NCBI GenBank assembly: GCA_963829525.1
Contig: CAWHIJ010000003.1
Span: 864,001 to 928,000, forward strand
Direction of reading: 5' to 3'
Source: an uncultured Actinomycetota bacterium
GTDB lineage: Bacteria; Actinomycetota; Actinomycetes; JAHEKZ01
Length of the DNA stretch: 64,000 nt
Position 1 is the first letter of the stretch. Each line of letters starts with the position of its first letter. The notes under the pieces are model-generated. The model was not told where the DNA came from. It saw nothing but the letters and a program-made list of their open reading frames with translations, and searched no databases. Made by a program: the position numbers and the translations under genes. This document shows, piece after piece, positions 17,357-64,000 of this stretch.

Positions 17357-17499
17357 TCCAGAGCGAATGTCGGGTGGTAGTACGCCGACTGGGTGACGGT
17401 TCGCGCCTCCCACTGTCGGCCATTGCCCCTGTGGGGGAGAGTGGCCACATCGTGACGCTCGGTAGTCCGGGCACCCATGGTTGGCCAGAAGGAGGCGGC

Positions 17500-19446
17500 G
17501 TGCCCGATACAGAGCGTGATGGCACCGAGGTCGTCACTGCGACCAGCACGGCACTGTCGAGCACTTCGGTGCTTCGTGCCGGCGATGCCGATGTCGGCCA
17601 GTCCCGCGAGACCAAGCGTCGCCGTCGTCTAAGGGTGATGGCGTTGTGGCTCGGTGTCCCCGCGCTCTTCCTCTGGTATCGGATCGCCATCGGGCAACCC
17701 GTGGAGTGGGGGCTCCCTGCAATCGACCCATACATGCTGGCGCCGGTCATCTTCTTCGTTGCTCTTCTACTGATCATCGTCGGGACTACCGTGGGCGCTG
17801 GGCGCTCCCCGCACGTCATGTACCGACCAGAGCAGATCACGACCACGCTTGACGACGTCAAGGGCATCGACCCGGTCAAGGATGAGGTCATCCGGTCGCT
17901 CAACCTCTTCCTGGCGCACAAGGCGTTTGCCAATGACATGGGAGGAACTCCGCGCCGAGGCATTCTCTTTGAGGGTTCTCCTGGCACAGGTAAGACCTAC
18001 CTGGCCAAGGCAATGGCCCGCGAAGCCGGTGTGCCGTTCCTCTTCGTGTCAGCCACCTCCTTCCAGTCGATGTACTACGGCGCGACCGCGCGCAAGATCC
18101 GCTCGTACTTCAAGCAGCTCCGCAAAGTGGCGCGGGCCGAAGGTGGCGCCATCGGGTTCATCGAGGAGATCGATGCCATCGCGATGTCGCGAGGCGGGCT
18201 GTCCGCGACAGCCATGCCACAGTCGCTTGCCTCGCTCGGCGTCCACGCTTGCGGCGGGATGACGTCGCTGCCCTCCGGCTACGGATCCCCGGCCGGGCTG
18301 GTCACCAGTCCCTCGATCACCAGTGAGGGTGTCGGGGGTGTCGTCAACGAGCTCCTTGTACAAATGCAGTCGTTCGATGAGCCGACCGGGCTCCAGAAGC
18401 TGCGCACAAAGTTCGTCGATCTTGCCAACCTCTATCTTCCGGCGCACCGCCAGCTTCGGCGTCCGGAGCCCCCTTCGACGAACCTGCTGCTTATCGCGGC
18501 GACAAACCGCGCAGACAACCTCGACCCGGCGCTGCTCAGGCCAGGCCGATTCGACCGTCGTCTCACCTTCGAGCTGCCCGCCAAGTCCGGGCGACGCGAG
18601 ATCATCGACCATTACCTCGGCTTGAAGTCGCACGGCCCAGAGCTCGACGTCGAGGACCGGCGTGACTCGCTCGCCGCTGCCACCCAGGGCTATACCCCGG
18701 TCATGATCGAGCACCTGCTCGACGAGGCGCTCGTCAACGCCGTCCGCCGCGGCGACTCGCAGATGTCTTGGCAGGACGTCGAGCGTGCGCGCCTGGTCGA
18801 GGAGGTGGGCATGGGACAACCTGTGTCGTACACCGTGCACGAGCGCAAGCTCATCTCGACGCACGAGGCGGGTCACGCAACGGCCGCTTTCCTGGTGGCT
18901 CCGGAGCGACGCCTTGAGGTACTCACGATCATCAAGCGCAGGTCCGCGCTGGGCATGCTGGCGCACGGGGATGCCGAGGAGGTCTACACGCGCTCACGCA
19001 CCGAGATGCTGGCGTTGATCCAGATTGCGCTCGGAGGTCAGTGTGCTGAGGAAATCTTCTTCGGCGACGTCTCGACAGGTCCAGGCGGGGACCTCCTTTA
19101 CGCGACCAATGTGGCGGCCGAGATGGTCGGGTCCTGCGGCATGCTCGACTCGCTGATCTCGTTTGCGGCAGTTCAGAACAGCGCGCTCAACGACAGCAAC
19201 ATCGTCGGACGGGTCCTGGCCGACCCCTCGGGCCGAGCTGCTGTCGAGGACCTGCTGCAGAGCCAGAAGGTCATCGTGAAGGCGCTTCTCGAAGAGAATG
19301 CCCACCTGATTGAGGCGCTGCGCGATGCTCTCCTCGAGCGAGAAGAGCTGATCGGGCGCGAGATCAACGATGTGCTTGCCGAGGCCCAGAAGGAGCAGGT
19401 CATCGACCTGCGCGCCACCGAAGAGCGGGAGCCGAGTCGCCCCTGA
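17500..19446 (+). CDS. FtsH-like AAA+ ATPase / M41 metalloprotease paralog
   Basis: Two TM helices, GSPGTGKT Walker A, FIEEID Walker B variant, ATNR..LDPALLRPGRFDR and HEAGH. GGAGG RBS precedes GTG 17500. Confidence 0.88.
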   Translation: MPDTERDGTEVVTATSTALSSTSVLRAGDADVGQSRETKRRRRLRVMALWLGVPALFLWYRIAIGQPVEWGLPAIDPYMLAPVIFFVALLLIIVGTTVGAGRSPHVMYRPEQITTTLDDVKGIDPVKDEVIRSLNLFLAHKAFANDMGGTPRRGILFEGSPGTGKTYLAKAMAREAGVPFLFVSATSFQSMYYGATARKIRSYFKQLRKVARAEGGAIGFIEEIDAIAMSRGGLSATAMPQSLASLGVHACGGMTSLPSGYGSPAGLVTSPSITSEGVGGVVNELLVQMQSFDEPTGLQKLRTKFVDLANLYLPAHRQLRRPEPPSTNLLLIAATNRADNLDPALLRPGRFDRRLTFELPAKSGRREIIDHYLGLKSHGPELDVEDRRDSLAAATQGYTPVMIEHLLDEALVNAVRRGDSQMSWQDVERARLVEEVGMGQPVSYTVHERKLISTHEAGHATAAFLVAPERRLEVLTIIKRRSALGMLAHGDAEEVYTRSRTEMLALIQIALGGQCAEEIFFGDVSTGPGGDLLYATNVAAEMVGSCGMLDSLISFAAVQNSALNDSNIVGRVLADPSGRAAVEDLLQSQKVIVKALLEENAHLIEALRDALLEREELIGREINDVLAEAQKEQVIDLRATEEREPSRP

Positions 19447-19516
19447 CCAGCCCGTTTCGACCGGGTTTCGACGGGGGGGTCTACAGGTCATCACCCGGTT
19501 GGCCGATGGTCTGTCC

Positions 19517-20026
19517 GTGGAGTCACTGACCAGCCCTGCCGATGTGCCCGGAACCGCTGCTGACGATGACGTGGCGCCGATCGGTGGAGTCATCTTGCGC
19601 TTTGCCGGTGCCCGCTACGCGGTCGACATGGCGAGTGTGGCTGAGGTAGTGCCTGTTCCGGTGATGACCCGTATCCCTGGTGGACCGGCTTGGCTCTCGG
19701 GGGTGGTCAATTGGCGTGGACGAGTCCTGCCGGTGATTGACCTCCGACCCTTGGTGGGCGCTGCTCTCTCACCGCTCCCCACCAGCGCGCGTCTGGTCGT
19801 TCTTTCCGAAGGTGACGTCGAGGTCGGTGTTGTCGCGGACATGGTTCCTGGTCTTCTTGACTGCGACCCACGCGACCTCGAACCGATCCCTGGCACGATC
19901 GCAACCGGCATTGCCCCGCTCGTCCGGGGAGTCGTCGATGTTGACGGACCCGTTGCTCTGCTGTCCACCGAGGCTGTTCTGCGTCTCCGTGAACAGCTTC
20001 CCGCTGCGCGTCGTGCCGCCGGCTGA
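19517..20026 (+). CDS. cheW: Chemotaxis adaptor CheW
   Basis: YAVDMASVAEVV, TRIPGGPAWLSGVVNWRGRVLPVIDL and GVVAD.V; start estimated. Confidence 0.92.
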   Translation: MESLTSPADVPGTAADDDVAPIGGVILRFAGARYAVDMASVAEVVPVPVMTRIPGGPAWLSGVVNWRGRVLPVIDLRPLVGAALSPLPTSARLVVLSEGDVEVGVVADMVPGLLDCDPRDLEPIPGTIATGIAPLVRGVVDVDGPVALLSTEAVLRLREQLPAARRAAG

Positions 20027-20059
20027 CTGATCCGCCCCAACCACTTGGAAGGAGGCGGG

Positions 20060-21691
20060 ATGTACACGCGCCGCAACAGCATCGAGTCGAGTGCGCAGCA
20101 CTGGTGTGTGCTGATTGCGGCCTTGGTGACTACCTGGATGGCCTGGGGGCCATCAGGGCAAGACATCATGACGACCGGCTCGATCGCCTTGATCGGGGCT
20201 CTCGCCTTCAACGCTCTCGCCGTGACACTTCTGGCGTCGCGTGCCGTCCGCAGGGAGCAGACACTCGCGGACACCATGCTCTGGGAGTCGGTCACCACTT
20301 ACGTCAGTCTGCTTCTCGTTTCCGGGCTGATCGCAGTGACAGGAGGTCTTGCGGCTCCGACGCTCTTTGTCGCATTCCTGTGGGCGCCGTATCTCGGTAT
20401 GTCCGTTGAGTTCGGCTACACCATTCGAGGCCTCGTCTTGCTTCTAGGTGGTGCGATTGGGGTGGCTGGCTGGTACTCCGAGACGTGGGCATCGGACTGG
20501 GAGATGGGAGCGTTGGTCGGTGCGGCGCTCCTATTCGTCGTTCTTGTCACGTACTTCTATGCATCTGATCTCTATGCGGAGCGCTTCACCGCTGAGCAGC
20601 TCGAAGCGGCAGTGAGCGAGCGAGTCGACCAGATTTCCCAGATCCTCGTACAGGCTGCCGACGGCGACCTCTCCGTAAACGTCTCTGACAACGGGTCAGG
20701 CATTGAGGCCACTACCAAAACCGAGGAGCTCGACAGGCTCGCCTTGGCCCTCGACCGGACGATTGGCTCGTTGCGGGGTTTGGTGTCTCGGGTGCGGGTG
20801 GGTGGGGAGCAGATTGGGGTGTCTGCTTCGCAGGTGTTGGTGGCTGCTCGGGAGCAGGCTGCTGCTGCGTCTGAGCAGTCGTCTGCTGTGGCGGAGACGT
20901 CGGCGACGATTGAGGAGTTGGCGGCGACGGCGGCTCAGATTGCTGAGACGGCTGAGCAGGTGGCGTTGTTTGCGTCGGAGACGTTGGGGTTTGCTGAGCA
21001 GGGTCGGGTGGCGGTGTCGGCGTCGGTGGCGTCGATGGATCAGATTTCTGTTCGGGTGGATCAGATTGCGTCGAGGGCGTTGGGGTTGGGGGAGAAGGGG
21101 CAGGAGATTGGTCGGATTTTGCAGGTGATTGATGAGTTGGCTGATCAGACGAATTTGTTGGCGTTGAATGCGGCGATTGAGGCTGCTCGTGCGGGTGAGC
21201 ATGGGCGTGGGTTTGCGGTGGTGGCTGCGGAGATTCGGAAGTTGGCGGAGCGGTCGCAGGAGTCTGCTGGTCAGATTCAGTCGATTGTGACGCAGATTCA
21301 GGCGGAGACGAACGCGACGATTTTGGCTTCTGAGGAGGGGTCGCGGGAGGTGCATCAGGGGTCTGCGTTGGCGCGGGATGTGGTGGGGGCGTTGGAGCGG
21401 ATTTCGGGGATGGTTGATGAGACGACGACTGCTGCGAAGGAGATCAGTATTGCGACGCAGCAGCAGCGTTCGGCGTCGGAGCAGGTGGTGTCGGCGATGG
21501 GTCAGGTTGCTGATGTGTCGCGGCAGTATGCGGTGGGGTCTAAGCAGGCGGCGGCTGCTGCTACCGAGCTGAACGTTCTCGCTGGTGACCTCCGCGCCTC
21601 CATCGCCCAATTCAAAACCACCGACGGGGCAACCCGGCGAACCCACGAAAGCACCCCAGAGACCGAACCGGCAACGGGAGACCTCCGGTGA
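20060..21691 (+). CDS. Chemoreceptor 1 (six-TM intramembrane sensor, HAMP-like segment, signalling domain)
   Basis: [35 protein letters not shown] hairpin; GGAGG RBS before ATG 20060. Confidence 0.95.
20768..21671 (+). repeat. Chemoreceptor signalling cassette, copy 1
   Basis: By eye identical to 25835-26738 (904 bp) and, over 20768-21619, to 24018-24869, except one synonymous SNP at 21565 (ACC versus ACG). Confidence 0.92.
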
Positions 21692-23295
21692 GCGGCATGG
21701 ACGCGGTCAAGGGCAGAGGAGCCATCGAGCTCGAGAACGGCGATATCTACAGCCATCACAACGCTGTTGAGACGATCCTCATTCAGTGGGGACTACCACT
21801 GGTTGCTGTCGGTCTTGCCTGGATGACAACAGGACTGAGCGGCGCCGATTTCACCAGGGTCATCGGCTGGTCTTCGATCGGCCTGATGGTTGCTACTTCC
21901 GCGGTGACCACCGTGTTGGCCGTCTACTCATGGCGACGGCGGATCTACATGGAGATCACCGACTGGTGGGACGGGATTGCTGCACTCGTACTTACGGCCG
22001 GCCTGATCGGGCTGGCTACCGCGACCGGCGGATACCAGAGCCCGGTCTGGTTCGTTCCTTTTGCGGCAGCTGCGTACATAGCGGCCGTCTTCGTCTACCA
22101 ACGCGGCTATCTCGCGCTGGCCTCTCTCTTGGCCATGGTGGTTGCGGCCGGTGTTGTCGCCGATGGCATGACTCAGTCTGACCTTGCCTACGGGCTCGCG
22201 ATTGCCTTGTCGATGTCGGTCACGTTCATGCTCGTCAAAGAGCTTGGTCGGGTGATGTACGACTTGATCTGGGAGACCGGGGAGCATCGGATCTCGCTCA
22301 TCCAAACCGTCTCTGGACTCCGCGAGGTGCTCTCGCGAACCGCCAAAGGTGACTTCACTCAGCTTGCCGAGGACTCCGCCGAGGACGAGACGGCGCTTGA
22401 GCTGCAGGAGAGCGTCAACGAGACCGTGCTGAGTCTTCGCTCGCTGGTGGAACAGGTTCGGCTGAGCGGCCGCCAACTCACGGAGGCCGCTGCGTCGATG
22501 GTGGGGGTCGCACAGCAGCAAGTGGCCGGTGCTGCTCAGCAGAACGGAACCGTCTCGGAGACGACGGCGACGATTGAGGAGTTGGCGGCGACGGCGGCTC
22601 AGATTGCTGAGACGGCTGGGTCGGTGGCTCGGGTTGCGGCTGAGACGTTGGCGTTGACTGATGAGGGTCGGGGTGCGGTGGCTGAGTCGGTTGAGGCGAT
22701 GGATCAGATTCGGTCGGTGGTGGATCAGATTGGGGTGTCGTCTGCGGGGTTGGGGGACAAGATCACGCAGGTGGGTCAGATTTTGTCGTTGATTGATGAG
22801 TTGTCTGAGCAGACGAATTTGTTGGCGTTGAATGCGGCGATTGAGGCGGCTCGTGCGGGTGAGCATGGGCGTGGGTTTGCGGTGGTGGCTGCTGAGGTGC
22901 GGAAGTTGGCGGAGCGGGCTCAGGAGTCGACGAGCCAGATTCAGGGGATTGTGACTGAGATTCAGGCGCATACGCGGTCGACGGTGTTGGCGTCTGAGGA
23001 GGGTGCTCGGGCTGCTGAGCGTGGGTCGGGTAAGGCTGCTGGTGCGGTGGTGGCGTTGGATCGGATTGCGGCGATGGTTGATGAGGCGACCGGTGCTGCT
23101 GAGGAGATCAGTATTGCGACGCAGCAGCAGCGGTCGGCGTCTGATCAGGTGGTGGTCGCGATGACCCAGGTCTCCGAAGTCTCCCGGCAAACGTCATCGG
23201 GTGCTGAGGCCGGCGTGACAGCGGCAGCTCAGCTCGACGTGCTGGCCACCGAACTCGGAGAGTCGATTGCAGCGTTCAGGACGGAGGAGCCATGA
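21688..23295 (+). CDS. Chemoreceptor 2 (six-TM sensor, divergent signalling domain)
   Basis: [35 protein letters not shown]; 4-nt overlaps with both neighbours. Confidence 0.95.
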
Positions 23296-24884
23296 ACGAG
23301 AAGTTCAGTGGTCGCGACATGTTTGCGACGAGCTCGGTCCATCTTCTCCTGCTTGTGCTTGCGGTAAGTGCTTGGTTACTTGAAGGGCACTTCACTCCGG
23401 TTGTGCTGTTGGCGCCCGCTCTCAACCTGGTTGCCATCGTCTCAATCTGCGTAACGGCTCTGACAGCGACGGCCCTGTCCGTCCGGGCATGGCGCGGTCA
23501 GTTGGGGATCGACACCACCTCAGTTTGGGATCCAGTGACATGCCTTTTCCAACTGTCTGCCGCGCTGGTGATGTGTTACACGCTGGGGGGATTCAATGGA
23601 AGCGGCTGGGGGCTGGTACTGGTCCTGCTGCCGTATCTGGGCGTTGTCTTCTCAGACGTCCAATTGCGTGGGTTGGCCGTAGCTGTAGGGGTGGGCATTG
23701 CGAGCGCGGGTTGGCTGTCTCAGAGCTGGACTGCCGAGAACATTCCCACCGCCTTCATGGTGGTGGCGGTGGCTGTGCTGGGAACGTGGTTCACCGAGCA
23801 ATCAGCTACTTACCTCTTCAACATGCGGCGCCGAGCGCAGGCCCAACAGAACGAGCTTGAACTGCGAATCGCAACAATCTCTACTGCCCTTGGGGCCGCC
23901 GCTGCAGGTGACCTGACTGTGCATACTCCGAAAGAGTTGAGTATGGATGGCGGTGGTTCAGACCTGCAGGTCGACCAACTTGGCTCCTTGGCACGGTCGT
24001 TTGATCATACGTTGGAGTCGTTGCGGGGTTTGGTGTCTCGGGTGCGGGTGGGTGGGGAGCAGATTGGGGTGTCTGCTTCGCAGGTGTTGGTGGCTGCTCG
24101 GGAGCAGGCTGCTGCTGCGTCTGAGCAGTCGTCTGCTGTGGCGGAGACGTCGGCGACGATTGAGGAGTTGGCGGCGACGGCGGCTCAGATTGCTGAGACG
24201 GCTGAGCAGGTGGCGTTGTTTGCGTCGGAGACGTTGGGGTTTGCTGAGCAGGGTCGGGTGGCGGTGTCGGCGTCGGTGGCGTCGATGGATCAGATTTCTG
24301 TTCGGGTGGATCAGATTGCGTCGAGGGCGTTGGGGTTGGGGGAGAAGGGGCAGGAGATTGGTCGGATTTTGCAGGTGATTGATGAGTTGGCTGATCAGAC
24401 GAATTTGTTGGCGTTGAATGCGGCGATTGAGGCTGCTCGTGCGGGTGAGCATGGGCGTGGGTTTGCGGTGGTGGCTGCGGAGATTCGGAAGTTGGCGGAG
24501 CGGTCGCAGGAGTCTGCTGGTCAGATTCAGTCGATTGTGACGCAGATTCAGGCGGAGACGAACGCGACGATTTTGGCTTCTGAGGAGGGGTCGCGGGAGG
24601 TGCATCAGGGGTCTGCGTTGGCGCGGGATGTGGTGGGGGCGTTGGAGCGGATTTCGGGGATGGTTGATGAGACGACGACTGCTGCGAAGGAGATCAGTAT
24701 TGCGACGCAGCAGCAGCGTTCGGCGTCGGAGCAGGTGGTGTCGGCGATGGGTCAGGTTGCTGATGTGTCGCGGCAGTATGCGGTGGGGTCTAAGCAGGCG
24801 GCGGCTGCTGCTACGGAGCTGAACGTTCTCGCTGGTGACCTCCGCGCCTCCATCGCCCAATTCAAAACCGGCAACAACGCCTAG
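23292..24884 (+). CDS. Chemoreceptor 3
   Basis: Hydrophobic N-terminal domain followed by the same signalling domain as receptor 1. Confidence 0.95.
23994..24869 (+). repeat. Chemoreceptor signalling cassette, copy 2
   Basis: Matches 25811-26686, including a 24 bp 5' extension that copy 1 lacks. Confidence 0.92.
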
Positions 24885-25015
24885 AGGTCCAGACCGACGT
24901 AGTCGGGTCCAGACTCCTCAGGACCGGGGCCATCCCCCATTTGGGCTACAGGACGCCTCCGGATCGACCGATGACCCATCCAGGACGGAACCGCCTGACT
25001 GCCGATGGAGGAGAC

Positions 25016-26755
25016 GTGAGCGCGAGCACTGCTGTGGGTGAAAACCCAGCGCTCGAGTCCGTTCTGGACTCCATCGACCGGACCAAGTCCGGCGGCGCCT
25101 CGCTGTTCTTCAACCGGCGCAACTGTTCGAGACCACCTGCCTCCATTTCGGGCTCATCGCCTTCAGCGTGGCGCTGGGGTTGGTGTTCTTCCGAGGTCAG
25201 GACGAGCCGGTCGCGTCACCGCTCTGGGCGGTATGGGGCGCTGGCCTAGTTGTTGCGTGTGTGGCCGCACTGCTCGCTGTTCGCGCCTTCCGTCAGTCAC
25301 CACACATACCTCCGCACAGACCGCTGGGACACAGTGACGGGGGTTGCCCAAGCCGTTGTGCTCTCCCTTGCCACAATCTGGACCGGTGGTGTGTCGAGTG
25401 CCCAATGGTTATCGATCGTGGTGCTATCGGCCTATCTCGGGACGGTGATGGTCTACCGGGCCGGATGGGCGATGGCTGGGCTCTTGGCGGTGCTACCCGC
25501 CGTGACTCAGTATGCGGCTGAAGAAGCGCTTCCTGACGCGAGCTCAGAGTCTGTGACGATGCTGCTGGCCCTCACGCTCGGGCTGCCGGCTGCCTTCCTC
25601 ATCGTGCGCGGCGTTAGCCGTTCGCTCTACGACACTGCGGAAGGAACCGGCTGGGACCAGGCGCAACTGGTCGACCAGGTGCGCCAACTCTCGGAGGCAC
25701 TGGCTTCGGCCTCGCAGGGGGACCTAACCACGCGCGTGGAACTGGTCCACCTCGATGACTCCGCTAACGAGTTCGGGCTTGAGCGGACTCAGTACATCGT
25801 GGCGCTTTCGCGGTCGTTTGATCATACGTTGGAGTCGTTGCGGGGTTTGGTGTCTCGGGTGCGGGTGGGTGGGGAGCAGATTGGGGTGTCTGCTTCGCAG
25901 GTGTTGGTGGCTGCTCGGGAGCAGGCTGCTGCTGCGTCTGAGCAGTCGTCTGCTGTGGCGGAGACGTCGGCGACGATTGAGGAGTTGGCGGCGACGGCGG
26001 CTCAGATTGCTGAGACGGCTGAGCAGGTGGCGTTGTTTGCGTCGGAGACGTTGGGGTTTGCTGAGCAGGGTCGGGTGGCGGTGTCGGCGTCGGTGGCGTC
26101 GATGGATCAGATTTCTGTTCGGGTGGATCAGATTGCGTCGAGGGCGTTGGGGTTGGGGGAGAAGGGGCAGGAGATTGGTCGGATTTTGCAGGTGATTGAT
26201 GAGTTGGCTGATCAGACGAATTTGTTGGCGTTGAATGCGGCGATTGAGGCTGCTCGTGCGGGTGAGCATGGGCGTGGGTTTGCGGTGGTGGCTGCGGAGA
26301 TTCGGAAGTTGGCGGAGCGGTCGCAGGAGTCTGCTGGTCAGATTCAGTCGATTGTGACGCAGATTCAGGCGGAGACGAACGCGACGATTTTGGCTTCTGA
26401 GGAGGGGTCGCGGGAGGTGCATCAGGGGTCTGCGTTGGCGCGGGATGTGGTGGGGGCGTTGGAGCGGATTTCGGGGATGGTTGATGAGACGACGACTGCT
26501 GCGAAGGAGATCAGTATTGCGACGCAGCAGCAGCGTTCGGCGTCGGAGCAGGTGGTGTCGGCGATGGGTCAGGTTGCTGATGTGTCGCGGCAGTATGCGG
26601 TGGGGTCTAAGCAGGCGGCGGCTGCTGCTACGGAGCTGAACGTTCTCGCTGGTGACCTCCGCGCCTCCATCGCCCAATTCAAAACCACCGACGGGGCAAC
26701 CCGGCGAACCCACGAAAGCACCCCAGAGACCGAACCGGAGCGGGTGGACGTATGA
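25016..26755 (+). CDS. Chemoreceptor 4 (two apparent indels in the sensor region)
   Basis: GGAGGAG RBS before GTG 25016. The sensor can be rebuilt across three frames (SLFFNRRN / [11 protein letters not shown]...VRAFRQ / TDRWDTV). Signalling domain as in receptors 1 and 3. Confidence 0.88.
25811..26738 (+). repeat. Chemoreceptor signalling cassette, copy 3 (mosaic of copies 1 and 2)
   Basis: 5' edge and SNP allele match copy 2; the 3' tail encoding [17 protein letters not shown] matches copy 1. Confidence 0.92.
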
Positions 26756-28959
26756 GTACCTGGGCCAATGACCCTGAGTTGGTCGCGACCTTTCGTCAGG
26801 AGGTAGAGGACCGCCTCGCCTCGCTCTGCGACGGGCTGCTAAAGCTCGAGGGCCACCCACAGCCACGCCAGCTCGTTGCTGCGATGTTCCGTGACGCGCA
26901 CACCGTCAAGGGTTCGGCACGGATGCTGGGTCTTGACGGTGTCGTGGATGCAGCCCATCGCGCAGAGGATCTCCTCGGCGCGATGCGGGACGGACGATTC
27001 GATCCCCGCCGTGATCTGGTTGACCTCCTCCTTGCAGCGGCCGAAGGCATCCGCCGGGGTCTGCCGGGTGCGGCACGGCCAATCTCCGATGACGACCTCA
27101 TCCGACTCAATGCCGCGTTGGACAGCGCTCTCGAAGGGCAGAACCCGGTCGATGTCCCGCGGTTCACTGTCTCTGACGATGAGGGAGACCTCGACGAGTC
27201 GAACCGTCCCAAGGCGGGTGAGTCAGTGCGCGTTCCTGTTCGACGTGTGCACGGCCTGCTCGATGTCGTTGGGGAGGCGGAGCTCGAGGCTCGGCGGGTT
27301 GAGCGTGGAGTTCTCGAACTCACCGGGCTCACATCTGAGCACGTTCGAATCGTACGAGTCATCCGGCAGCTAACAGCTACCGATGTGACGGTTCCTCCTG
27401 AGATCGCCGAGAGCCTGCACGGGCTCATCGCACTTGGTGACCAGTTTCAGGCTGTTGCACGAGAGATGCGCGGGTCCATGGAGGACGCCCAGAACCGACT
27501 CGCTCAAGTGCGCGACGGTGCGATGGGCTTGGCGATGGTGCCGGTACGTCGAGTCGTGGCAGCCTTCCCTCAGCTGGTACGCGAGGTGGCTGGATCCACG
27601 GGCAAGGATGTGCGGCTTCGCCTCATCGGTGAAGACATCGAGCTCGACACCCGTGTTCTCGACGGTGTCGCTGATGCGCTACGTCACCTGGTCACCAACG
27701 CTGTCGACCACGGCTGTGACTCTCCATCAGAGCGTCTTGCGGCAGGCAAGCCGGCCCAGGCAACGGTCACTGTCTCGGCAAGGGCTTCGGGCTCGACGAT
27801 CGTGATCGAGGTCTCCGATGACGGCTATGGCATCGACGAGGAGGCTCTGCGTCTGTCAGCCATCGAGCGTGGACTGCTGACCGCGGATACTCAGGTATCG
27901 GGCCAAGCGCTCTTCTCCGTTCTGTTCCAGCCAGGATTCAGCACACGTGACGAGGTGACATCGACGTCAGGACGCGGAGTCGGTTTGGACGTGGTGCGCA
28001 CCGCCGTCGAAGACCTCGGGGGAACAATCGAGATCGAGAGTGTGCTCGGTATCGGCACCAACTTCGTCATGACCCTGCCCGTCACACTTGGTGTGATGCG
28101 TTGTCTCGTTGCTCGGCTCGGCAACGAGCGGTATGCCGTCCCGGTCACCAACGTGGTCGAGACAATCAGCCTGGGCGATGTCGAGACTTCCACCGTGGCG
28201 GGTGCTCCGGTCCTCGTGCGACATGGATCGACGGTGCCTCTGGCAGACCTCGGACGTGCCCTTGGAGTGCCAGGAGAACGTGAGACCAAGGTTGGTGTCG
28301 TCGTTCGCTATGGCAGCGCGACTGAGCAGCTGGCGTGGGCAGTCGACGCGCTCGAAGGCGAGCTGGAGGTGGTCGTCAAGGATCTCGGCGGCTTCCTCGG
28401 GCGTCCGCCCTTCATCGGTGGAGGCACCATCGACAGCGATGGCAGCGTGATGCTGCTGCTCGACGTGCGTGAGATGGCTGTTGAGCAGTACACCCGCGGT
28501 ATCGCATTCGAGGCGCCCCCGTTCCCCAAGCAAGCGAGGGCACGCCCGCTGGGGCTGCGGCTGGTCGCACTCGGCTCGGAACCACGGGCAAGGCGCGTGT
28601 GCTGGTGGTGGAGGACTCAATCGGCGTCCGTGAGCTTCAGCGGGTCATCCTCGAGGGCGCTGGCTACGACGTCGTAACGGCTGTCGATGGCAGTGATGGT
28701 GCCGCCCGGCTGAATGGCGACCCGGTCGATCTGGTTCTGTCGGACGTCGAGATGCCAGGAATGGACGGCTTCACGCTCACCCGCACCATTCGGCGCACCC
28801 GCGGATGGGAGAGCCGTCCCAGTCGTGATCATGACCTCGAGGGGTGACGAGGCAGACAAGCGAGCCGGCCTCGACGCGGGCGCAAACGCCTACCTGCTCA
28901 AGAGCGAGTTCGACCAGACCCAGCTCGTCGATACCGTCCGGCGCCTTGTGGGGCGTTAG
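26752..28959 (+). CDS. cheA: CheA-receiver hybrid histidine kinase; indels near 28530-28600 and 28810
   Basis: Hpt [35 protein letters not shown] and [10 protein letters not shown], then a CheW domain. The receiver ([21 protein letters not shown]) is in shifted frames. Confidence 0.92.
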
Positions 28960-63597: not shown

Positions 63598-63804
63598 AGG
63601 CGTGCGGCACGGTCACCGGCCGGGTTCGGAACACCATGACCCACTGATCGTTCCGAGCAGTGGAACACTAGCCTTGACCTCGTAAGGTCGCTGGACAACG
63701 GGTGCACCGTCTTGGACTCTTGCACAGGCGCCAGTATCGCTTCGTGCTGTCGCACCGCCGCACTCGACAGACAACACGCCTGGCACGCATGGAGGACAAA
63801 CAGC

Positions 63805-64000
63805 ATGACGCCTGAGGAGATTTTGAAGGGCTTGTTTGATGAGACGTTGGTGGGCAATGCTCCTGCGGTGTTGGAGCTGACGAATGCCGGTCTTGGGATG
63901 GGGATGGGTCCGGAGACGTTGTTGTTCGAGGCGTTGATTCCGTCGTTGGAGGAGGTGGGGGCCCGGTTTGAGCGGGGTGACTTCTTCGTTCCGGAGATGT
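63805..64000 (+). CDS. Corrinoid (B12-binding) methyltransferase protein, 5' part (runs off the window)
   Basis: Manual translation MTPEEILKGLFDETLVGNAPAVLELT...ALIPSLEEVGARFERGDFFVPEM, a B12 cap domain. GGAGG RBS at 63791. Confidence 0.85.
   Translation, partial: MTPEEILKGLFDETLVGNAPAVLELTNAGLGMGMGPETLLFEALIPSLEEVGARFERGDFFVPEM

Follow-up and report, generated by a model that had tools for sequence, protein, structure and literature searches.

The 64,000-nt window analysed here, from the main contig (C3) of the genome of an uncultured actinomycete (2.96-Mb assembly, 97% complete, scanned as a whole), carries a chemosensory gene cluster on its top strand, in which genes for an FtsH-like protease, CheW, four methyl-accepting chemotaxis proteins (MCPs; mcp1 to mcp4) and CheA follow in this order (17374-28677). 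Positions are those of the window unless prefixed with C3:, which denotes genome coordinates on the main contig. All four mcp genes match the MCPsignal domain (PF00015) with 131.6-148.1 bits against a curated cut-off of 34.6. Their N-terminal membrane/sensor halves are unrelated in sequence to one another. The signalling halves of mcp1, mcp3 and mcp4, here called type A, share 99.3-100% identity over 0.85-0.93 kb. In mcp2 this half is a diverged version, with 68-81% nucleotide identity to type A and many amino-acid differences, and carries a second repeat, type B, which at 22556-23189 is 100% identical over 634 nt to C3:831102-831735 in a fifth MCP gene located 53 kb upstream. The repeats measure 920 bp (mcp1), 634 bp (mcp2), 876 bp (mcp3) and 934 bp (mcp4). 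These tandem signalling halves are kept near-identical by gene conversion, and in their long 5' arm all positions that are free to change have been driven to G or T on the coding strand, the short 3' tail having been driven to A and C instead.

The nucleotides G or T (keto) and A or C (amino) at third codon positions are denoted K and M, and the third-position G+T fraction is denoted K3. In mcp1, 262 of the 264 in-frame codons at 20768-21559 end in G (186) or T (76) and none ends in A. The original prediction had noticed that nearly all codons of this cassette end in G or T with only rare AAC and ATC, and the exceptions proved to be exactly one AAC (21311) and one ATC (21443). Cassette third positions overall are 70% G and 29% T, and by codon position the cassette G+T fraction is 0.68 (first), 0.39 (second) and 0.99 (third). 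The preference for C-ending codons claimed for the surrounding sequence was also seen, since the 14,125 codons of the 31 long open reading frames (ORFs) in the window end in C (0.435), G (0.347), T (0.126) or A (0.092), and the sensor halves of the four mcp genes have a third-position G+T of 0.51-0.57. All 17 Leu codons of the mcp1 cassette are TTG, compared with 1 of 16 in a one-copy orthologue, and thus synonymous first positions have been hit too. The only GC-skew peaks of the window, with values of 0.42-0.48, coincide with the four cassettes. Six of the ten G-quadruplex-type motifs on the top strand of the window lie inside the three type-A cassettes (20790, 21075, 24040, 24325, 25857 and 26142), and no such motif was found on the bottom strand of the 64 kb; these motifs may be a by-product of G-richness or may aid recombination.

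The predicted abrupt switch of codon usage at the repeat edge was found at the 5' edge and not at the 3' end. In mcp1 repeat identity starts at 20759 and the G/T run at 20768, and the run stops at 21562, inside the repeat, where an A/C-rich arm follows. Identity extends past the run to 21619 in the comparison with mcp3 and to about 21671-21678 in the comparison with mcp4. The mcp2 run stops at 23154, and identity to the tract of the fifth MCP gene extends to 23189. The coordinates of these arms and of the other features are collected in Table 1.

Table 1. Features of the chemosensory cluster and of other skewed repeats, in window positions or genome coordinates (C3:).
Feature	Position	Strand	Evidence or remark
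FtsH-like protease ORF	17374-19446	+	Upstream of CheW
CheW gene	19370-20026	+	Pfam CheW, E 1.3e-28; directly 5' of receptor array
mcp1, methyl-accepting chemotaxis protein	20045-21691	+	ORF; Pfam MCPsignal E 3.9e-43
mcp1 keto (G/T) arm, type-A repeat	20768-21562	+	G/T-ending codons 263/265; 99.9% identity to mcp3 and mcp4 copies
mcp1 amino (A/C-rich) tail, inside repeat	21563-21671	+	Third positions G/T 9/36, hand count on codon alignment
mcp2, diverged receptor bearing type-B repeat	21688-23295	+	ORF; Pfam MCPsignal E 3.6e-38
mcp2 keto arm	22549-23154	+	G/T-ending codons 195/202
mcp2 short A/C-rich tail, within type-B repeat	23155-23189	+	GTC GCG ATG ACC CAG GTC TCC GAA GTC TCC CGG CAA
mcp3	23292-24884	+	ORF; Pfam MCPsignal E 3.2e-43
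mcp3 keto arm, type-A repeat	23994-24812	+	G/T-ending 269/271 codons in 24000-24812
mcp3 A/C-rich tail, within repeat	24813-24869	+	Codon alignment and repeat comparison
mcp4	25250-26755	+	ORF; Pfam MCPsignal E 2.9e-43
mcp4 keto arm, type-A repeat	25811-26629	+	G/T-ending 269/271 codons in 25817-26629
mcp4 A/C-rich tail, within repeat	26630-26744	+	Codon alignment and repeat comparison
CheA-type kinase	26752-28677	+	Hpt, HATPase_c and CheW domains; directly 3' of array
Start of B12-binding-domain gene, second skewed repeat	63803-64000	+	Whole gene is C3:927803-928452, extending beyond the window
DUF222(-HNH) loci	C3:220193-221581 / 2313472-2314852; C3:513378, 596422, 1835000, 1991316, 2199937, 2418272, 2557379; C3:1765899 / 1944036		

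Skewed duplications of this kind were described in 2021 under the name GRINS, as elements that "recode" proteins. The parts of that description used here define GRINS as duplicated regions longer than 500 bp that share over 80% identity with a second region of the same cluster or genome and whose GC and TA skews both exceed a mean absolute value of 0.15; the two skews are usually positively correlated and strongest at third positions, and an abrupt change from G+T to C+A occurs on one strand (PMC8256042). The MCP repeats are 634-934 bp long with identities of 99.3-100% (type A) and 100% (type B). Their mean absolute GC skew is 0.41-0.45 and their mean absolute TA skew 0.23-0.24 (150-nt windows, 30-nt step), compared with 0.08 and 0.13 in the rest of the window, and the two skews are correlated with r = 0.52, 0.54, 0.17 and 0.61 in the four copies (mcp3 being weak) compared with 0.03 elsewhere. 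The skew is strongest at third positions, the reading frames are open and the MCPsignal domain is intact, so that the encoded protein is a normal receptor as had been claimed, and paralogues are more alike than orthologues, which is the mark of homogenisation by gene conversion. Since all of these properties are present, the MCP tracts are GRINS, found in a new gene family and lineage but of a kind already published.

The genome-wide scans connect the skew to repeated DNA. A frame-aware scan for tracts of 40 codons with K3 of at least 0.95 gave 24 tracts, among which only the five MCP cassettes (including that of the fifth MCP gene, at C3:831071-831700) are longer than 200 codons and the other 19 comprise 41-64 codons; the skew as a product of chance is therefore excluded. 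The 99.9th percentile of 50-codon windows in the genome is 0.86 G/T, compared with 99% in the cassettes. Two more MCPsignal genes, at C3:362250 and 790551, are unskewed. When 50-codon windows were taken without a gene model, 98 of the 130 with |K3-0.5| of at least 0.34 lay in self-similar DNA, which contributes 1,736 of the 98,050 windows genome-wide, and at a threshold of at least 0.42 the count was 77 of 82. After merging, 22 of 95 skewed segments at a threshold of at least 0.30 were in repeats. The proposed tie between skew and multicopy sequence is therefore found on the scale of the genome, with the MCP cassettes supplying much of the window-level signal. Repeats without skew are present as well (1080816/1128279, 1129471/2720278 and 2873238/2874584). 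Two small contigs, C1 and C2 (7.7 and 9.8 kb), are 80-98% identical to C3:133570-143198 (9.6 kb) and unskewed, and may be unplaced variants rather than true repeats.

A closer comparison was provided by relatives, which are uncultured Actinomycetes with Motilibacteraceae, Nanopelagicales, Frankiales and Acidothermaceae as neighbours, together with Longivirga aurantiaca. Among 76 public MCP loci with flanks of up to 6 kb, the 10 that carry two to four cassette copies with at least 97% identity were all skewed (K3 0.84-0.97), and 60 loci with one copy in view, a group that includes L117 with an unrelated second receptor and L125 with two copies only 92% alike, had K3 of 0.33-0.63. The remaining six loci had one copy in view and were yet skewed (0.71-0.98); all six are located at the ends of contigs or on short ones, places at which assemblies are interrupted by arrays. 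The single-copy orthologues, whose comparison the original prediction had called for, thus show ordinary codon usage, and the prediction withstood the refutation that it had itself named. Copies in the same genome are 97-100% identical (10 loci), compared with protein identities of 75-98% between the cassettes of different species. A tree built from the proteins requires a minimum of six changes (gain or loss) of the skewed state, or four when the rows from contig ends are left out, and one genome with one copy and a K3 of 0.63 (G016) is nested among skewed lineages.

The position of the run relative to the repeat is also conserved among relatives. In the whole arrays of eight genomes, with about 30 genes, the G/T run begins 0-10 codons from the repeat start in nearly all genes, the exception being one gene in G019 in which it starts 30 codons off. 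Two genes in G005 and G010 with a longer shared repeat (about 410 codons) have a longer run, of about 367 compared with 275 codons, and in G027, from another family, two MCP genes 68 kb apart share a 217-codon repeat that has the run inside it, followed by an M-rich tail. Over the 20 codons after the run, K3 is 0.27 in the 10 multicopy loci compared with 0.49 in 59 one-copy loci.

A second family, unrelated to the MCPs, repeats the contrast between multicopy and one-copy genes. The B12-binding-domain gene (PF02310, PF02607) is present at C3:653384-654033 and 927803-928452 as dispersed, inverted copies that are 98-99% identical and both carry a G/T run. In five genomes in which the two copies are 98.2-99.8% alike (G000, G001, G004, G005 and G010), K3 is 0.71-0.84 overall and 0.78-0.89 in the first 190 codons, with a lower and often M-rich end. 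In seven genomes with one copy (G014-G019 and G026; 85-91% protein identity) K3 is 0.36-0.52. Genes with DUF222(-HNH) domains have about 20 matches in the genome, several of them in repeat families, and their third positions go from keto at the 5' end to amino at the 3' end in 15 of 16 ORFs here and in 18 of 21 in other actinobacterial genomes, with the switch more central than in the MCP and B12 genes. The pattern is also seen, in weaker form, in copies that are not repeated, and part of it may belong to the family; for this reason the DUF222-HNH genes give only weak independent support; they probably correspond to the 'endonuclease' class of actinobacterial GRINS (PMC8256042). Three tandem membrane-protein paralogues lacking a Pfam match at C3:2507047-2509915 (minus strand) share a C-terminal stretch that is 78-81% alike and has G/T-rich third positions on the coding strand.

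The direction of the changes did not follow the original prediction, according to which only C-to-T and A-to-G changes are fixed on this strand. At fourfold sites C-to-G is as common or commoner: from C in the one-copy orthologue to G or T in the cassette there were 27 and 15 changes (G016), 37 and 17 (G040) and 46 and 22 (G024), and 10 and 7 for the close relative G001, although silent sites between genera are probably saturated and later T-to-G changes under GC pressure may contribute to the excess. Differences between the skewed cassettes of different species are mostly G/T transversions. Codons ending in A are too few for a judgement of A-to-T change. The excess of C-to-G over C-to-T argues against models based on deamination or tautomers, which allow transitions only.

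The original prediction had pointed to NucS/EndoMS, used by actinobacteria in place of MutSL, and this held for the present genome: a NucS_C domain is encoded at C3:2346732-2347043 (134.9 bits), and neither MutS_V nor the MutL domain PF01119 was found in the 97% complete assembly. Of 41 relatives, two unpublished genomes among them, 39 have NucS_C. In G010 the match is split in two pieces with a TGA between them (G010:C13:59555-59915), which may reflect a sequencing error, a frameshift or decay to a pseudogene, and the cassettes of this genome are still fully skewed. In the portions of the biochemical and genetic studies cited here, EndoMS/NucS prefers G/T, G/G and T/T and leaves C/C, A/C and A/A largely or wholly unaffected (PMC4838380), and G/T, G/G and T/T mismatches are also those repaired in vivo in Mycobacterium smegmatis (PMC11551767). 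For mismatches carried by oligonucleotides the incoming strand is the one that is corrected or rejected (PMC11551744), loss of nucS increases recombination between 85-95% identical sequences 3-10 fold (PMC5290159), and synthesis-dependent strand annealing is named as the main mycobacterial recombination route (PMC13061034). The mismatch specificity of NucS is an exact keto/amino division and fits the partition into G+T and A+C observed in the repeats.

On these grounds we infer that the cause of the skew may be a conversion bias set by the mismatches that NucS can see, a reading to which we give a little less than an even chance; biased conversion in general is likelier than NucS itself. Following a break within one copy of the repeat, the old 3'-ended strand would pair with DNA copied from a paralogue by synthesis-dependent strand annealing. 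At a site with G or T in the old strand, a donor carrying A or C would produce a G/T, G/G or T/T mismatch, which NucS would see, and the donor information would be removed or the event aborted. At a site with A or C in the old strand, a donor carrying G or T would produce A/C, A/A or C/C, to which NucS would be blind, and the donor base would survive. Because the complement of K is M, two copies that differ by K/M at a site form in the heteroduplex either a visible K-K or an invisible M-M mismatch, depending only on which copy supplies which strand. G and T would thereby spread on the strand with the 3' tail, which is the top strand to the left of the break and the bottom strand to its right, and since this strand changes at the break a keto arm would be followed by an amino arm. 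Selection at the protein level would limit the drive to synonymous sites. Conversion biased in this way would be confined to repeats, would include C-to-G and A-to-T changes and would saturate silent sites, including the change of Leu CTN to TTG; skewed cassettes would be expected to diverge by G/T transversions only and to show a keto arm followed by an amino arm. A-to-T changes aside, the repeats show these features, with divergence mostly by G/T transversions.

Several observations weigh against a conversion bias set by NucS. To produce the long keto arm and short amino tail of the MCP and B12 repeats, breaks would have to fall inside the repeat and close to its 3' end, which has to be assumed. 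NucS is present in skewed and unskewed relatives alike, and it can therefore be at most a necessary condition. To our knowledge, most of the non-actinobacterial phyla from which GRINS have been reported would be expected to lack NucS. Some long skewed tracts lie outside repeats, namely C3:2152441-2153160, C3:2597071-2597490 and two further tracts of low complexity. The first of these lies in a gene (C3:2151889-2153157) for a single-copy, probably secreted protein with a weak match to a DUF5122 beta-propeller; its 720-nt tract has A/C-ending codons nearly throughout, no repeat partner was found at the nucleotide level, and it falls outside the repeat model. Type-B orthologues in G001, G003, G005 and G010 carry a K-run with only one copy of at least 87% identity found (those in G004 and G017 are unskewed), and L125, with two copies 92% alike, is unskewed. 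The number of independent contrasts is small, namely two on well-supported branches or four on all branches, all in the same direction but not significant (sign test, p = 0.5).

Biased conversion or repair synthesis might also be caused by something other than NucS, for example another mismatch enzyme or a polymerase with a keto/amino error bias acting in the D-loop, which would give the same polarity and the same dependence on repeats, and this is unlikely but the comparative evidence does leave room for it, as it supports biased conversion as such and not NucS by name. We know of no other enzyme that splits mismatches exactly into a G/T-only and an A/C-only class. In the parts of the GRINS paper drawn on here, the occurrence of GRINS across phyla (Cyanobacteria, Firmicutes, Bacteroidetes and Proteobacteria) and in two eukaryotic groups (amoebae and choanoflagellates) is taken by its authors to argue for a widespread mechanism, and GRINS number is associated with RuvA variants, both of which would suit a cause outside NucS; GRINS in polyketide synthase (PKS) genes are, on the other hand, commonest in actinobacteria and rare in proteobacteria and bacteroidetes (PMC8256042). 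The order of events could instead be reversed, with a G/T-rich strand that recombines more readily being copied and homogenised afterwards, so that the association with repeats is an effect of the skew. RecA prefers GT-rich single strands, and this preference, low sequence complexity, or a G-quadruplex or R-loop on the G-rich non-template strand are possible reasons for such behaviour. That skew promotes conversion has been proposed for GRINS (PMC8256042), and the concentration of G-quadruplex motifs in the type-A cassettes and the existence of single-copy skewed tracts are in its favour. We nevertheless consider a skew that came first improbable, given that its own origin is left unexplained, as are the start of the run within a few codons of differing repeat edges in many lineages, the opposite A/C tail, and one-copy orthologues that are never strongly skewed in two unrelated families.

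Strand-specific damage or mispairing on single-stranded recombination intermediates, such as the deamination of C and A in 3' tails exposed by resection, or mispairing through tautomers, could also be spread by conversion. Deamination makes the amino bases C and A keto-like (U and hypoxanthine) and on resected ends would likewise place a keto arm 5' of an amino arm, and mispairing by tautomers is a published hypothesis (PMC8256042, in the part used here). Damage of this sort predicts transitions only, whereas C-to-G is about twice C-to-T against three one-copy orthologues, and resected single-copy DNA would be hit too, yet the one-copy orthologues are unskewed; we therefore regard it as quite improbable. 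Selection for G/T-ending codons on the cassette, for instance for slow wobble decoding or for an mRNA property that aids folding of the coiled-coil receptor, would be in line with the intact and conserved protein and with silent sites being hit hardest. The same skew is, however, found in unrelated repeats (the B12-binding pair, DUF222-HNH genes and tandem membrane proteins), the run is followed by an opposite tail, and one-copy receptor orthologues use ordinary codons, which brings codon selection close to refuted and makes it a highly improbable cause.

Other readings were rejected or found to lack support. A foreign donor is at odds with the cassette tree, which follows local relatives, and with 99% G/T at third positions, which is far beyond the 99.9th percentile of the genome. 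An artefact of assembly or polishing is not compatible with a pattern found in many independent public assemblies on short as well as megabase contigs. The minus-strand ORF at 20696-21646 is not an antisense gene but a by-product of the scarcity of A and C, its length being due to the few stop codons that are possible there without these bases. A link to the leading strand is unsupported: with the replication origin near 0.26 Mb and the terminus near 1.72 Mb the MCP array is leading, but the equally skewed B12 copy at 653 kb is lagging. A retroelement or diversity-generating retroelement (DGR) was rejected because no RVT_1 match was found in the genome and the copies, at 99-100% identity, are poor in A as well as in C. 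Repeat mutation resembling repeat-induced point mutation (RIP) was rejected because the frames are intact, one base class is affected per strand and transversions are involved.

Compared with published GRINS, the MCP tracts are alike in being duplications of 0.6-0.9 kb within functional genes of an actinobacterial host, in their correlated GC and TA skews, in copies homogenised by conversion and in the sharp switch, on one strand, from a G+T arm to a C+A arm, and actinobacterial GRINS include endonuclease genes. In the published tylactone example the arms follow in the same order, with G+T in the AT domain and C+A in the post-AT linker (PMC8256042, in the part used here). Unlike the PKS GRINS, those described here are found in a chemoreceptor array and a dispersed B12-binding pair of an uncultured actinomycete with a small genome, and their skew is near saturation, at 99% of third positions. 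New here are the copy-number contrast, the B12 pair, the run edge at the 5' edge of the repeat with the A/C tail, and the C-to-G excess; the fixed keto-then-amino order, the C-to-G excess and the contrast between one-copy and multicopy orthologues are not described in the portions of the GRINS paper available to us (PMC8256042). The same portions state that the mechanism is unknown and offer base tautomerism, and a look-up of the term "mismatch" in the paper gave 0 occurrences. The later literature on GRINS that was found concerns PKS engineering.

The proposed process also has counterparts outside GRINS. GC-biased gene conversion (gBGC), which was reportedly extended to bacteria by Lassalle et al. 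in 2015, likewise involves a fixation bias from the resolution of heteroduplex mismatches that resembles selection on silent sites in recombining DNA; it favours G and C on both strands, whereas here G and T are favoured on one strand and the polarity flips within the repeat. In kataegis, strand-coordinated clusters of mutations arise at resected breaks by enzymatic deamination of C. The likeness is that polarity switches at the break, with opposite strands being single-stranded on its two sides; unlike the present tracts, kataegis involves transitions only, is not confined to repeats and lacks filtering to silent sites over evolutionary time. As for NucS/EndoMS, the enzyme is encoded here, its substrate and non-substrate mismatches match the two base classes of the skew, and it suppresses recombination between diverged repeats. 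Our literature search found no published link between NucS or mismatch repair and the strand-specific composition of repeats or skewed repeats. The nearest is a preprint on M. tuberculosis which, in the part cited, reports an enrichment of T>C/A>G in paralogous regions and suggests that asymmetries of recombination repair could reshape composition (PMC13061034).

It is conceivable, though we hold it with less confidence than the reading for the present locus, that GRINS generally are the footprint of mismatches that the surveillance of a cell cannot see during gene conversion. If this is true, one could predict from the repair system which kind of skew a lineage shows, with keto/amino skew in lineages that have NucS (actinobacteria and many archaea) and another skew, for example purine/pyrimidine, or none in lineages with MutS, an enzyme that is poor at C/C and other pyrimidine-pyrimidine mismatches. 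The junction of the arms would then be a map of the sites at which recombination is initiated, and a class of elements so far unexplained would be accounted for.

The locus and its relatives form a compact natural series, with one ordinary cassette copy at one end and two to five near-identical and almost fully recoded copies at the other, and three regularities, namely the dependence on copy number, the fixed keto-then-amino order and the excess of C-to-G, narrow the possible causes. If the idea of a mismatch spectrum is true, the substrate range of a repair enzyme would be linked to concerted evolution and to genome composition on a large scale, with the further warning that tests based on codon usage, dN/dS or horizontal transfer are misled in such tracts.

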